Below are positions 5,557 through 43,664 of a stretch of 64,000 nucleotides of DNA, in pieces; position 1 is the first letter of the stretch; every line of letters starts with the position of its first letter. Position numbers and translations under genes: made by a program. The notes beneath the pieces were generated by a model, which saw only the letters and a program-made list of their open reading frames with translations, was not told where the DNA came from and did not search any database. The stretch spans positions 18,253 to 82,252 of the forward strand of contig DAIRVG010000009.1 of assembly GCA_036802945.1 (NCBI GenBank), in the 5' to 3' direction. Source of the stretch: Vicinamibacterales bacterium (lineage in GTDB: Bacteria; Acidobacteriota; Vicinamibacteria; Vicinamibacterales; UBA2999).

Positions 5557-6828
5557 CTAACCGATTTTTACGACGTGGTTCTGCTTGGCGCCCTTACGGA
5601 GGACGAAGAGGCGCCCGTCTATGGCGTCGCCGGAGCGGAGCCGCGCCTTTTCGTCAGTGACGCGGCGGTTGTTGACGTAGACGCCGCCGCCGCGAATCAG
5701 ACGGGTGGCTTCGCCCTTGGACGCGGTCAACCCGCTGGATGCGAGAAGCTCCACCACCGCAACGCCATCGCCCGCCAGCTTATCCGCCGTTACGGTCGAC
5801 GAAGGCACATCGTCGAAGACCGACAACACGTCCTCGGCAGGGAGCATCGAAATGTCTTCACCAAAGAGGACGCCGGACGCCCGCTCCGCACGCGCGACGG
5901 CCTCGTCGCCGTGCACCATCCGCGTGACCTCGCGCGCGAGCGCTCGCTGCGCTTCGCGCAACTCCGGTGCCATCCGCGCGGTGTCTTCGAGCTGTTCGAC
6001 GGTGGGTCGATCGAGAAAGGTGAAGAACCGAAGGTACTTCCCCACGTCGCCGTCCTCGGTGTGCAACCAGAACTGGAAGAAGCGGAATGGCGAGGTCAAG
6101 CTCGGATCGAGCCACACGGCCCCCGCCTCGGTCTTGCCGAATTTTGTTCCCGATGCCGTTGTCAGCAACGGCATCACGAGACCGTGGGCCTTTGTCCCTT
6201 TGAGGCGACGAATTAAATCGCATCCGGCGAGGATGTTTCCCCATTGATCACTTCCACCAACCTGCAGCGTGCAGCCGAAGCGATCGTTCAGCACGAGAAA
6301 GTCGTACGCCTGCAGCAGTGAGTAGCTGAACTCCGTGTACGAAATCCCCTCCTCGCTCTCCATGCGGCGCTTGACCGACTCCCTCGCGAGCATGGCGTTC
6401 ACGGTGAAGTACTTGCCCACGTCTCGCAGAAACTCCATCGCGTTCATCTTCGTCAGCCAGTCCGCGTTGTTCACGAGCCGTGCGGTGTTGGTGGACGCAT
6501 CGAAATCAAGAAAGCGCGCGAGTTGTTCGCGGATCGACGCAACGTTCGCCTCGACCTGATCCACGCTGAGCAACGTGCGTTCGGTGCTTTTGCCGCTGGG
6601 ATCGCCAATCAGACCAGTGCCGCCGCCGACAATCGCAATCGGGCTGTGACCAAGACGCTGCATTCGTGCGAGTGCGAGTGCGGGCAGCAGATGGCCCACG
6701 TGCAGGCTGGACGCCGTCGGATCAAAGCCGCTGTATGCGGTGACTTTCTCTCGCGCGAGAACGTCGCGCAGCCCCTCGGTGGCGTCGTACACAAGACCGC
6801 GCCACTCCAACTCGCCATACAGGTCCAT
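5557..6828 (-). CDS. tyrS: Tyrosine--tRNA ligase
   Basis: [14 protein letters not shown] (HIGH motif), KFGKTE (KMSKS-type motif), and a C-terminal S4-like domain. Confidence 0.95.
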
Positions 6829-38945: not shown

Positions 38946-39018
38946 AAACTCCCAAGCCCCAACGACCAGCTCCCGAGGTGCTTGGGAATTGGAAGTTGGG
39001 AGTTGGGAGTGGGTTTCT
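38944..39018. repeat. Imperfect inverted repeat of C3/G3-tract low-complexity arms; likely bidirectional terminator
   Basis: Left arm agaaactcccaagccccaac (38944-38963); right arm gttgggagttgggagtgggtttct (38995-39018). Lies between the convergent gpmA and the 39032-39340 gene. Confidence 0.6.
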
Positions 39019-39031
39019 CTTCTCTAAACCT

Positions 39032-39340
39032 CTAGCCTTCTACGGTCGGCTCCTTCGCCTCGTCAGCTCCGATGCGGAGCGAGCGCAGGAATCGCTTGTC
39101 GTTCGCAGTCAGTTCGAAAGCCCGGCGCGCCGGCAGCAGGCGGGCGGGAGTGGTGATTTTCGTTACCGCCGCTCCATTGTTGCGGTTCACAAAACCAACG
39201 ACCGCTTCGAGCGTCACTCGCATATCGAAGCCGGCTTCGCGCGCCTTCGCGCGACACGCTTCCACTTGCTGGTTTTCGGCTACGGCAGCGGCGATCGCGT
39301 CGGCCAGCTCTTTTGCGAACCGGTTTACGACGTCATCCAT
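39032..39340 (-). CDS. Small hypothetical protein (102 aa)
   Basis: ATG at 39340 is preceded by a strong RBS (gaggagg). Sequence MDDVVNRFAKELADAIAAAVAENQQVEACRAKAREAGF... I recognise no family. Confidence 0.5.
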   Translation of the reverse strand: MDDVVNRFAKELADAIAAAVAENQQVEACRAKAREAGFDMRVTLEAVVGFVNRNNGAAVTKITTPARLLPARRAFELTANDKRFLRSLRIGADEAKEPTVEG

Positions 39341-39634
39341 ACCTGCTTCCTCCTCACACCGCCGCCGGGCCGGGATCCGGGGCGTCTCCCGATCCGAACC
39401 TGCACATACCGGGGAGGTCTGGCAGGGATCGAGCGCCAAAGATGTTCATCTGTATGGGGTTAGCCTTCGTGAAGACTACGTTTCATTGTAGAGACAGTGC
39501 TGATGAGTGTCAACGAACTGGCAGTTTTCGGCCTGTTTTCGCGTAGCTGAACAGATGACCCGCCTGCTCCAGCCACATTGCGGCCGTTAACCGCTGGTAC
39601 ACAAGGGGTTGGAGTAGAATCGCGTGGCACCCCC

Positions 39635-41218
39635 ATGACGAGCGGTCCGACGAGCCGTTTCTACCGCACCCCCGACGATCTGTCAGATATCGACCCCGAA
39701 ACGGATATCGGCTATCCGGGCGTCTTTCCCTACACCCGGGGTATTCAGCCGTCCATGTACCGGGGCCGTCCCTGGACGATGAGGCAGTACGCGGGGTTTG
39801 CCGATGCCGCGGAATCGAACCGCCGCTATCGGTATTTGCTGTCGCAGGGCGTCAGCGGGCTGAGCGTTGCGTTCGATCTACCGACACAGATCGGCTACGA
39901 CTCGGACCATCCGCTGGCCGCAGGTGAGGTCGGACGCGTCGGCGTCGCGATTGACTCGATCGAAGACATGTCGGCGCTCTTCGACGGCATTCCGCTCGAT
40001 CGCGTGTCAACGTCGATGACGATCAACGCGACGGCCATTATCCTGCTCGCTTTGTACGTTGCCGTCGCAAAGCGGCAGGGGGTCGCGCCCGCCGCGCTCT
40101 CGGGGACCGTGCAGAACGACATCCTGAAGGAGTATGTCGCGCGCGGCACCTACATCTACCCTCCCCGCCCGTCGCTTCGCATCGTGACCGACATCCTGGC
40201 ATTCTGCGAGCGCAACATGCCGCAGTGGAACACGATCTCGATCAGCGGGTATCACATCCGCGAAGCAGGCTCCACGGCCGTTCAGGAAGTCGCGTTCACG
40301 CTCGCACACGCGAGCGCGTACGTCCAGGCCGCGATCGATGCCGGCCTCGACGTCAACAACTTTGGTCAGCGGCTGTCCTTCTTCTTCAACGCTCACAACG
40401 ATTTCATCGAGGAGGTTGCCAAGTTCCGCGCCGCTCGTCGTCTGTGGGCGCGCCGCATGGCGCAGCGGTTCGGTGCCACTCATCCGCGCGCGCAGCAACT
40501 GCGCTTCCACACCCAGACGGCGGGAAGCACGCTGACCGCGCAGCAGCCGGATAACAACATCGTCCGCGTCGCGCTGCAGGCGCTGGCGGCGGTGCTCGGG
40601 GGAACGCAGTCGCTTCATTGCAACGGCAAGGACGAGGCGCTCGCGCTACCAACCGAAGAGAGCGCGACGATTGCCCTGCGAACGCAGCAGATCATCCTGC
40701 ATGAGAGCGGTGTCGCGAACACGGTCGACCCGGTGGCCGGCTCCTATGCGATCGAGGAGATGACGACGCGGATCGAACGCGCGGCCTCGGAACTCCTTGA
40801 CCGGATCGATCAGATCGGCGGAACACTCGCGGCGATCGAATCTGGCTATATCCAGCAACAGATCCAGGATGCAGCCTATCGCGCACAACAGGCGGTCGAC
40901 GCGGGTGATGCCGTCGTCGTCGGAGTGAACAGGTTTACGAGTGGCGAGGCTTCGGGCGGGCAGGTGCGGCCGAACGCCGACCTCTTCCACATAGACCCGG
41001 AAGTCGAACGCCGCCAGGTCGAACGCGTGCGGGCGATGCGCGCTGGACGCAGCGAGCGCGAATGGCGCTCAGCGTTGGACGCGGTCGAATCGGCGGCGCG
41101 CGGGACGGCGAACCTCGTGCAGCCAATCATCGACGCCGTCGAGAAACGCGCGACCCTCGGCGAGATCGCTGACGCCATGCGCCGGGTGTTCGGCGAGCAC
41201 CAGGACGTCCCGCCGTGA
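39635..41218 (+). CDS. Methylmalonyl-CoA mutase family, catalytic (large, N-terminal) domain only
   Basis: [27 protein letters not shown] and [17 protein letters not shown] are hallmark MCM catalytic-barrel motifs. The roughly 527-aa protein ends before any B12-binding (DxHxxG) domain. Confidence 0.9.
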
Positions 41219-42009
41219 GCGCACGCAACCCGTTGCTTGACGTTCAGCACCTGACGGTGACCTTTGGCGGCTCATCCGCGACACCCGCGGTCGACGATGT
41301 GAGTTTCCAGATCATGCCGGGTGAAACACTCGGACTCGTCGGCGAATCGGGCAGCGGAAAGTCGGTCACGGCATTTTCCATCCTGCGCCTCCTTCAGCCC
41401 CCGGGCCGAATCACAGGCGGCAGCGTGATGTTCGACGGACGCGATCTGCTTTCCCTTCCGGAACGGGAGATGCGCGAAGTACGGGGCGCCAGAATCGCGC
41501 TGATCTTTCAAGAACCGATGACGGCGCTCAACCCAGTGATGCGCGTGGGCGATCAAATCGCTGAAGCGCTGACCGTCCATGGGAGGGGGACACACGCCGA
41601 GGCACGTACCCGCGCCACGGAATTGCTCGACGCGGTGCGCATTCCAGACGCTGCGCTCCGCGCCCGCGACTACCCACATCAGCTCTCAGGGGGTATGCGC
41701 CAGCGCGTCATGATCGCGATTGCGCTCGCCTGCGAACCGCCGCTGATCATCGCGGACGAGCCCACGACCGCGCTCGACGTGACAATCCAGGCGCAGGTAC
41801 TGGAGCTCATGCGGGAGTTGAAGGCTCGCTACAACCTTGCGTTGCTGCTGATCACCCACGACTTCGGCGTCATCGCCGAGATGGCCGATCGCGTAGCGGT
41901 GATGTTCAAAGGCAAGCTCGTCGAGCAGGGTCCCGTGCGCGAAATCCTGCGTCACCCTGCGCACGAATACACACGCAACCTGCTGGCGGCCGTCCCCGGG
42001 GCCCGCTGA
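41215..42009 (+). CDS. ABC transporter ATP-binding protein, Opp/Dpp/Nik D-type
   Basis: [13 protein letters not shown]...[11 protein letters not shown] (Walker A), LSGGMRQRV (signature), [12 protein letters not shown] (Walker B). The GTG start overlaps the MCM stop (GTGA). Confidence 0.9.
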
Positions 42010-42911
42010 TGCCCTTCGACTGCGCTCAGGGTAAACCGCTCCTCGAGGTCCGTCACCTCGTCAAGCATTTCGTGCGGAAGCAGGGCCTGCTGCGTCCTCC
42101 GTCTGTCGTGAAAGCCGTGGACGATGTGACCTTCGCGATCGAGGAAGGCGAGATGTTCGGGCTCGTGGGCGAATCGGGAAGCGGCAAGAGCACGACCGGT
42201 CGTTGCATCCTGCGACTCATCGAGCCGACGTCCGGAGAGGTCCTGTTTCGCGGCGAGAACGTCGTCGGATTCTCGCGACAGCGCATGCGGATGGCACGCC
42301 GCGACATGCAAATCGTTTTCCAGGATCCGTATTCCTCGCTCAACCCGCGCATGCGGGTCGGCGACATCGTCGAGGAGCCGTTGGTCATTCACAAGCTCGG
42401 CTCAAAGACCGAACGGCGTGCTCGCGTCGCGGAGCTGTTTCAGCTTGTCGGCCTTGAGCCGGAACACATCGCGCGGTATCCCCACGAGTTCAGCGGCGGA
42501 CAGCGGCAGCGTATCGGAATTGCCCGCGCTCTCGCGCTGAATCCGGCGCTCATCATCGCGGATGAAGCCGTCTCCGCGCTCGACGTGTCGATTCAGGCGC
42601 AGGTGGTCCGGCTGTTGATGGAGCTGAAGGACCGGCTGAAGCTGACGTATCTCTTCATCGCGCACGATCTGCGGCTCGTTGAGCATATCTGCAGCCGCGT
42701 GGCGGTGATGTACATGGGGAAGATCGTCGAACTGGGTGAGACGAAAGCGCTCTTCTCGAATCCCACCCATCCGTACACGAAGGCGCTCCTCAGTGCGATT
42801 CCGGTGCTCGATCCGGATGCGCCGCGACAGCGGATCGAGCTCAATCCCGAGTCGTTCGAGCGGAACGCGCCATTGAAGGAAATCGGCGCACGGCACTGGG
42901 CTGCGGTCTAA
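42009..42911 (+). CDS. ABC transporter ATP-binding protein, Opp/Dpp/Nik F-type
   Basis: [39 protein letters not shown], and C-terminal [15 protein letters not shown]. The start shares one base with the upstream stop. Confidence 0.9.
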
Positions 42912-42947
42912 GTCCCAAATCCCAAAACCCAAATCCCAAAACCCAAG

Positions 42948-43664
<717 letters not shown>

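Follow-up and report, generated by a model that had tools for sequence, protein, structure and literature searches.

The subject of this report is a stretch of 64,000 nucleotides (hereafter the window) from a Vicinamibacterales bacterium of the phylum Acidobacteriota, which was analysed as part of contig C9 of a 6.98-Mb assembly (381 contigs, 91% complete) and has a G+C content of about 63% throughout. The window contains a cluster of three genes in which mcmA, encoding the catalytic subunit of a methylmalonyl-CoA mutase without the B12-binding domain, is followed by two genes encoding ATP-binding cassette (ABC) ATPases of the OppD and OppF types. This mutase-oppDF arrangement is real and anciently conserved. 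It probably represents a detached and shared OppDF pair that would act in trans on permeases encoded elsewhere in the genome, and that would be co-transcribed with a mutase subunit of the Tyr/Arg type.

An earlier note on the same DNA had described a mutase catalytic gene lacking the B12 domain before two Opp-type ATPases, and the Pfam and NCBIfam searches agree with that description. The junctions which it had read are also there: GTGA at 41215-41218 contains the stop codon of the mutase gene and the start codon of the first ATPase gene, and in TGATG at 42007-42011 the TGA of the first ATPase gene and the ATG of the second have one base (A) in common. The large hairpin which had been seen at the end of the trio folds at -43.5 kcal/mol (z -4.85), a value equalled by none of 200 shuffles, and is likely to be a bidirectional terminator between oppF and the lolD-like gene. 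Pfam searches with 19 open reading frames (ORFs) between 29184 and 51910 found no B12-binding, MeaB, BPD_transp_1 permease or SBP_bac_5 binding-protein match, as the note had stated for the flanks. From this layout the three genes appear to form one operon, presumably co-transcribed, whose limits are a small divergent gene upstream and the hairpin downstream.

The transport partners, for which the earlier note had pointed to the rest of the genome, are indeed encoded on other contigs. The pair in the window comprises the only two oligo_HPY ATPases of the genome. There are two OppB/OppC permease pairs, on contigs C3 and C33, neither of which adjoins an ATPase gene, and four SBP_bac_5 binding proteins on C83, C33, C112 and C156. 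The C33 permease pair has a binding-protein gene before it and a DHDPS-family gene after it; no binding protein stands alongside the C3 pair. With a score of 360.9, the OppB protein of C3 lies above the cut-off of 350 for Opp2B, the NCBIfam model named 'nickel ABC transporter permease'; the OppC protein of the same pair, at 299.3, falls just short of 300. The closest family match of the binding proteins is the oligopeptide-binding Opp4A, far under its cut-off. A short run of N interrupts OppB on C3 within the 5' part of the gene (L021, about 6272-6286), where the true start is unreadable.

The same separation of permeases and ATPases is found in relatives. A C3-type OppBC pair is present with 74-88% identity in 12 of 12 relatives of different genera, followed in 11 of them by the same convergent TPR gene, and no binding protein or ATPase was found within 4 kb of it in any of the 12. 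The PrpD-family and ABM genes beside the C3 permease pair were considered as a link with propionate and discarded, as they are not conserved in the 12 relatives. The near-complete relatives G207, G229, G197 and G179 contain no Opp-type ATPase pair besides the one linked to the mutase; these genomes have three, three, zero and two N-terminal matches of OppB, respectively, located on other contigs or hundreds of kb away. G125, which belongs to another order, contains a second, canonical operon and four further OppB matches. Moreover, a sample of 31 genomes of the family, all at least 90% complete and including the unpublished G009, was inventoried. ATPases and OppB are present in all 31, and OppB genes outnumber the ATPase pairs in 23, equal them in seven and are fewer in one. 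A single ATPase pair was found in 14 of the 31, 12 of which have two or three OppB genes. One detached ATPase pair together with a larger number of permease sets without ATPases is the arrangement by which shared ('multitask') ATPases are defined.

To follow the linkage between mutase and ATPases, the best OppD matches in relatives were taken and the gene upstream was searched with tblastn. In a first sample of 41 genomes, which covers the genus and 16 further families of the same order and counts both the locus of the window itself and L038 of the unpublished G009, the mutase gene lies directly upstream of oppD in 28 of 30 loci. It does so too in 24 of 25 further loci of the family and order, and in 13 of 20 loci among the remaining best matches of the same order, which makes 64 of 74 same-order loci when the window's own is left out. 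The arrangement is also found in other orders of the class (13 of 20 loci, in 13 of 18 genomes), where four loci are canonical oppBCDF operons, and in other classes of the phylum (13 of 40 loci), where permeases lie upstream in three loci. The survey of other classes used one locus per genome from 31 families, and its tally of 301 genomes includes the unpublished G401, G308 and G285, from which no locus was used. Gaps between the high-scoring segment pairs of mutase and OppD measure at most about 110 bp in 11 of the 13 linked loci of other classes, and at the mutase-oppD junction of many relatives the stop and start codons again overlap or are 2-8 bp apart.

Neither eno, gpmA, a lolD-like gene nor acs was found at those loci of other orders and classes that keep mutase and oppDF together. 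The survival of the linkage where the flanks do not survive suggests selection for co-expression. In one group of another order (L082-L090), a DinB_2-family gene encoding 186-212 aa with a lysine/arginine-rich tail lies between mutase and oppD. A B12 small subunit had been considered for this gap of 600-800 bp in other orders, and was abandoned when the DinB_2-family gene was found in its place.

Among loci not labelled Acidobacteriota the picture is different. In a baseline scan with the mutase protein (one genome per species, best 80 of more than 603 matches), OppD and OppF follow the mutase in six of the 19 loci labelled Acidobacteriota and in none of the 61 not so labelled; in at least 16 of these 61 the large subunit has the small subunit immediately after it. 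The six loci belong to metagenome-assembled genomes (MAGs) assigned to Vicinamibacterales, 'Acidobacteria' and Pyrinomonadaceae, and the closest named records among the matches listed are Vicinamibacterales or Acidobacteria MAGs with 74-79% mutase identity and the same gene order. The earlier note had judged the coupling unusual and worth a neighbourhood survey, and had named a synteny confined to this genome as the finding that would speak against its significance; the linkage extends across the phylum and is therefore not peculiar to this genome. At the level of literature listings and abstracts, no description of a mutase-Opp pairing in Acidobacteria or Vicinamibacteria was found.

The loci in which the two parts of the cluster have separated serve as natural experiments. 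In a sister family, represented by 26 mostly closed genomes, 24 genomes have an orthologue of the window mutase with 69-76% identity. Any oligo_HPY ATPase occurs in only nine of the 26, and an OppB-type permease (E <=1e-20) in only six, all of them among the nine with an ATPase. The mutase is present without Opp-type ATPases and without Opp-type permeases in 15 of the 26. At 14 of the 24 mutase loci of this family the convergent lolD-like gene comes straight after the mutase gene; oppDF is kept at three, and a 57-aa remnant of OppD is left at one (L210). The opposite loss is seen in five genomes of the same order, where oppDF lies behind the small divergent gene or behind eno/gpmA and the mutase is not there. 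No mutase orthologue of at least 69% identity was found in these five genomes, the best match being one of 66% in a single genome and at another locus; fused mutase forms with open frames of 716-1094 aa take its place. The ATPases thus track the orphan permeases and not the mutase. Since mutase and oppDF have each been lost without the other and the ATPases go with the permeases, these data argue against an obligatory function of the ATPases with the mutase and in favour of transport in trans.

Both ATPases have the sequence features of catalytically intact proteins. The OppD-like protein matches ABC_tran with 108 bits and positions 1-26 of the 65 of oligo_HPY with 24.4 bits against a cut-off of 27.1. 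The OppF-like protein matches ABC_tran with 113 bits and oligo_HPY with 41.4 against 27.1, over model positions 1-47 of 65 only. Walker A, Q-loop, signature (LSGGM in OppD), Walker B and H-loop are intact in both. The ratio of nonsynonymous to synonymous substitution rates (dN/dS) is 0.07-0.18 for OppD and 0.07-0.17 for OppF, similar to that of the mutase, with dS close to saturation for the more distant pairs of the comparison. Intact motifs and these ratios indicate that the ATPases are not decaying. The top NCBIfam matches are OppD/DppD for the first protein and DppF/OppF/GsiA for the second, all under their cut-offs. No cut-off of the NCBIfam equivalogs (OppD, DppD, NikD, NikE, CntD/F, GsiA and others) was reached by either ATPase, the best scores being 315.6 against 575 for OppD, 272.1 against 318.7 for NikD, 357.5 against 408 for the Dpp subfamily and 272.7 against 332.55 for NikE.

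The OppD protein of the window belongs to a short form of 264-279 aa that is found throughout the genus and in G213; several species have open frames of 265-279 aa. The OppD proteins of most relatives have 322-351 aa, so that the genus form is without about 65-75 C-terminal codons, including a segment with four Cys that most relatives keep. The span from OppD to OppF is shorter as well, as would be expected if about 65-75 codons had been deleted. A continuation of OppD past its stop codon was considered and rejected: profile matches run on with internal TGA stops, and the read-through frame was unconvincing by eye. The C-terminal tail of the window's OppF protein contains no Cys.

The catalytic (TIM-barrel) domain of the window's mutase protein is full-length and exceeds the curated cut-offs. 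PF01642 (MM_CoA_mutase) is matched with 726.2 bits against a cut-off of 22.1, over profile positions 10-512 of 512 and ORF positions 27-539, and TIGR00641 with 741.6 against 303.8. An alignment with 1REQ, 2XIJ and 4R3U places the motifs RQYAGF, VARGTY and GYHIRE at Tyr89, Arg207 and His244, respectively, in the numbering of the mutase of P. shermanii (Propionibacterium). The Tyr, Arg and His residues bind the carboxylate of the substrate, and Tyr and Arg at these positions, versus Phe and Gln in isobutyryl-CoA mutase or Ile and Gln in 2-hydroxyisobutyryl-CoA mutase (HCM), set the specificity of these mutases. The large subunit of 4R3U, a 2-hydroxyisobutyryl-CoA mutase in which Ile and Gln stand in place of Tyr89 and Arg207, is the best solved-structure match of the window protein (530 bits), and methylmalonyl-CoA mutases (MCMs) come next with about 480 bits. 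The three residues are kept in all 29 linked orthologues aligned; all 13 linked mutases of other classes have the Tyr, and in 12 of them the Arg was identified as well. The dN/dS of the gene is 0.06-0.17. Judged by its residues, the gene that adjoins the ATPases is predicted to encode a genuine methylmalonyl-type (Tyr/Arg) subunit.

The partners of this subunit are encoded elsewhere too, and the B12-binding subunit and meaB, which the earlier note had reported as absent from the flanks and proposed to look for in the rest of the genome, were located on C53 and C17. The genome has two genes for mutase large subunits, that of the window and C53:9235-10776. The C53 paralogue is 56% identical to the window mutase; its motifs RQFAGF and IAQKEY put Phe and Gln at the specificity positions, and it is therefore predicted to be isobutyryl-CoA-mutase-like. 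Directly after it lies the sole stand-alone small B12 subunit of the genome (C53:10914-11291). With the only small subunit adjoining the Phe/Gln paralogue, the window mutase would have to borrow it, and one small B12 subunit would then be common to two large subunits. In five near-complete relatives, too, each genome encodes just one stand-alone small B12 subunit, which in G050 directly follows a mutase paralogue of 57% identity, and two large subunits with one small subunit are a recurring pattern in relatives. MeaB (C17:8383-9162, 313.7 bits) is encoded by a gene translationally coupled between those for an acyl-CoA dehydrogenase and for an epimerase/metallo-beta-lactamase fusion (L023, 4149-7599). 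The methylmalonyl-CoA epimerase domain of this fusion scores 146.3 against 114.95 with TIGR03081; its fused partner is a metallo-beta-lactamase (YtnP-like lactonase), and the fusion is unusual.

Taken together, these data are best accommodated by an OppD/OppF-type heterodimer with intact catalytic motifs that would dock in trans on the scattered OppBC pairs, which in turn would work with dispersed binding proteins. The OppDF pair would be a shared ('multitask') energising module for importers of the peptide/nickel family. Its position behind a gene of central metabolism would give steady expression of the ATPases whichever permease is in use. Two reasons for the linkage can be proposed, which are not mutually exclusive. 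The first is that the mutase gene may offer a constitutive promoter to ATPases needed by several differently regulated permeases. The second is that peptide import may be co-expressed with the route from propionyl-CoA to succinyl-CoA, which would dispose of the carbon of Val, Ile, Met and Thr.

Several observations weigh against this interpretation. At distant loci eno, gpmA, lolD and acs are gone and mutase and oppDF are nevertheless together, so that a convenient promoter is not a fully sufficient explanation. G197 keeps the ATPase pair with zero N-terminal matches of OppB, and in G233 and G234 the ATPases are linked to the mutase and no OppB was found. Each of these last two genomes has two oligo_HPY matches, of which one is poor (an internal stop, TGA, in G233; a match below the cut-off in the other). 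Besides, the lack of the Cys-rich C-terminal part in OppD means that the assembly of the ATPases with the permeases may differ. Finally, related genomes are not independent samples and the counts given above therefore overstate the number of independent events.

The alternative that survives best refines the shared-ATPase interpretation more than it replaces it. It sees in the cluster a functional regulon in which the import of peptides is coupled to the catabolism of amino acids, the ATPases still serving the orphan permeases. Imported Val, Ile, Met and Thr would be degraded via propionyl-CoA and methylmalonyl-CoA to succinyl-CoA. The persistence of the linkage in 13 of 20 and 13 of 40 distant loci, none of them with eno, gpmA, lolD or acs, agrees with it, as do the conserved stop/start overlaps or few-base gaps, the constant Tyr/Arg type of the linked mutase and the oligopeptide-binding Opp4A as top (far below cut-off) match of the binding proteins. 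Nevertheless, one of the orphan permease pairs scores as nickel-type, and mutase and oppDF have been lost independently of one another. A regulon of this kind is a real possibility, although clearly a less probable one than the simple sharing of the ATPases.

The earlier note had suggested that a cobalt- or cobalamin-related function was possible; in such a role the ATPases would energise a Nik/Cbi-like importer supplying cobalt for the B12 of the mutase. The scores of the C3 permease pair with the nickel-permease models would fit such a role; so would the short OppD, which is near NikD and CntD in length, and the presence of NikD and NikE among the matches of the ATPases. These Nik matches miss their cut-offs, however, and the Opp/Dpp models score higher. 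Searches of 140 kb with Rfam at gathering thresholds, covering the window and seven partner loci (permease, binding-protein, small-subunit and MeaB), gave zero matches, and hence there is no cobalamin riboswitch in the window or the partner loci. Moreover, the B12-dependent mutase persists without ATPases or Opp-type permeases in the 15 sister-family genomes mentioned above. With these results the proposed cobalt or cobalamin role becomes unlikely.

A non-transport role tied to the mutase had been put forward in the same note. In such a role the ATPase heterodimer would bind the split mutase and serve, for instance, in its assembly with the small subunit or in the handling of the cofactor, for which PhnK and PhnL, two ATPases that attach to the carbon-phosphorus (C-P) lyase core, provide a model. 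The tight translational coupling conserved across the phylum, the absence of a permease in cis, the occurrence of PhnK among the weaker NCBIfam matches of the first ATPase and the lack of a small subunit near the mutase could all be read in this way. Against it, the mutase persists without ATPases in 15 of 26 sister-family genomes and the ATPases persist without a mutase orthologue of at least 69% identity in five of five genomes (with the 66% match elsewhere in one). MeaB is present elsewhere in the genome, as are orphan permeases in need of ATPases. With each part able to persist alone and the ATPases tracking the permeases, the proposal found no support and is very improbable. Related to this, the independent losses imply that a second task of the ATPases on the mutase cannot be obligatory. 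An optional or lineage-specific one, such as ATP-driven assembly of the split mutase with the borrowed small subunit or exchange of the cofactor, whether in addition to the powering of permeases or in its stead, would be compatible with these losses, at a similarly low probability; if it were true, a B12 enzyme would have an ABC ATPase as its accessory, in the manner of PhnK/PhnL on the C-P lyase core.

The last and weakest proposal, that the ATPase genes are the decaying remnant of a broken transporter operon beside the mutase, could appeal to the absence of a permease in cis, the truncated OppD of the genus, the OppD remnant of L210 and the TGA inside the G233 match, but it is already contradicted by the low dN/dS (0.07-0.18), by catalytic motifs that are all intact, by a short OppD kept across the genus in several species and by the presence of the ATPase pair in 31 of 31 family genomes.

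The features of the locus are collected in the table. The region between gpmA and the mutase gene is best read on the minus strand. A minus-strand ORF of 102 aa is conserved in relatives with 46-71% identity over nearly its full length (tblastn), versus only 29-44% for the overlapping plus-strand ORF of 161 aa (38978-39463), which had been a candidate for a conserved upstream gene and was dropped for this reason. It follows that the trio would be a transcription unit of its own and not a continuation of eno-gpmA. The 102-aa protein has no significant match in Pfam, and its matches in the protein atlas are exclusively clusters of hypothetical proteins of Acidobacteriota. The small divergent gene stays upstream whether the locus consists of mcm-oppDF, of oppDF alone or of mcm alone, and it could encode a regulator of the operon. 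The promoter-like site facing it is a consensus match only and is weak, one site having been found where shuffled sequences gave 1.1 expected.

Downstream, the LolD/MacB-type ATPase has no adjacent permease either and is thus a second detached ABC ATPase at the locus; its gene is kept at this position in most same-order loci. The right arm of the hairpin overlaps the 3' end of this gene and encodes the last residues of its product. The hairpin is composed of tandem heptamers (TCCCAAA-like) in inverted orientation. A 13-mer taken from it, CCCAAATCCCAAA, was counted 176 times in the assembly, both strands included; its copies often form runs and inverted pairs, and the heptamers look like a dispersed repeat family resembling repetitive extragenic palindromic (REP) elements.

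Table. Features of the mutase-oppDF locus (positions within the window; aa, amino acids).
Feature	Position	Strand	Basis
Small divergent gene upstream of the operon, 102 aa, without known family	39032..39340	-	tblastn
Promoter-like site TTGACA-17-TACAAT, 11/12 consensus, facing the small divergent gene	39485..39513	-	consensus match
mcmA, split-type methylmalonyl-CoA mutase catalytic subunit without B12 domain, 527 aa (predicted)	39635..41218	+	PF01642, TIGR00641
OppD-like ABC ATPase, 264 aa, short form, GTG start within GTGA	41215..42009	+	Pfam, NCBIfam
OppF-like ABC ATPase, 300 aa	42009..42911	+	Pfam, NCBIfam
Long hairpin, 82 nt, between the convergent oppF and lolD-like genes	42907..42988	.	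folding
LolD/MacB-type ABC ATPase, convergent, downstream of acs	42948..43664	-	Pfam, NCBIfam

These results have implications for the way in which genomes of this phylum are interpreted. An entire phylum, whose members abound in soil, appears to rely on one fully detached OppDF pair for its importers of the peptide/nickel family, so the 'incomplete' transporters in genomes and MAGs of Acidobacteriota are not to be counted as defective, and transport capacity is under-estimated by counts of ATPases. One gene pair may be the single control point of peptide uptake. Besides, the presence of two large mutase subunits of different predicted specificity and of one small B12 subunit makes the sharing of subunits a testable question, and the persistence of the linkage between mutase and ATPases constitutes a modest puzzle.

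Several known systems can be compared with the one described here. On the side of the mutase, the split mutases (HcmAB, PDB 4R3U) and the fused MCMs (PDB 1REQ, 2XIJ) have the full-length catalytic domain in common with the window protein, which keeps Tyr89, Arg207 and His244 of the MCMs; it differs from the split mutases in having neither a small subunit nor MeaB adjacent. On the side of the ATPases, the E. coli systems DppBCDF and NikABCDE belong to the same ABC ATPase subfamily, and the OppF protein of the window keeps part of the oligo_HPY extension. In E. coli, DppD and DppF each have a C-terminal [4Fe-4S] cluster that is needed for the stability of the complex (PMC12136057). The proteins of the window differ from Dpp in this respect, since OppD ends before the Cys-rich segment and the tail of OppF is without Cys.

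Shared ATPases are an established feature of sugar importers. According to a 2020 paper, MsmX from B. subtilis, MsiK from Streptomyces and MsmK from S. pneumoniae are shared ATPases of CUT1 sugar importers, and multitasking of ATPases had by then been reported only in CUT1 (PMC7658222). These systems resemble the present one in that the ATPase gene lies away from the permeases and incomplete importer loci without an ATPase are found elsewhere. The difference is that MsmX, MsiK and MsmK are homodimeric and MalK-type, whereas here the ATPases are of the heterodimeric OppD/OppF type, encoded in a mutase operon, and their energising of the permeases is predicted. Another parallel is that of Borrelia burgdorferi, where one OppDF pair is described with two OppBC permeases and five OppA proteins, the shared OppDF being constitutively expressed and the binding proteins regulated (PMC5736914). 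A single heterodimeric OppDF pair for more than one OppBC permease, with dispersed binding proteins, would be a property common to both systems. In Acidobacteriota, unlike Borrelia, oppDF is detached from every permease at the loci examined and coupled to the mutase gene. The oppDF genes of Borrelia presumably still adjoin oppB1C1. The mechanism is therefore most likely a known one in a new setting, that of a shared importer ATPase pair; what is new with respect to the known systems is an OppDF pair that is detached from all permeases, conserved in this state across a phylum and translationally coupled to a mutase gene.

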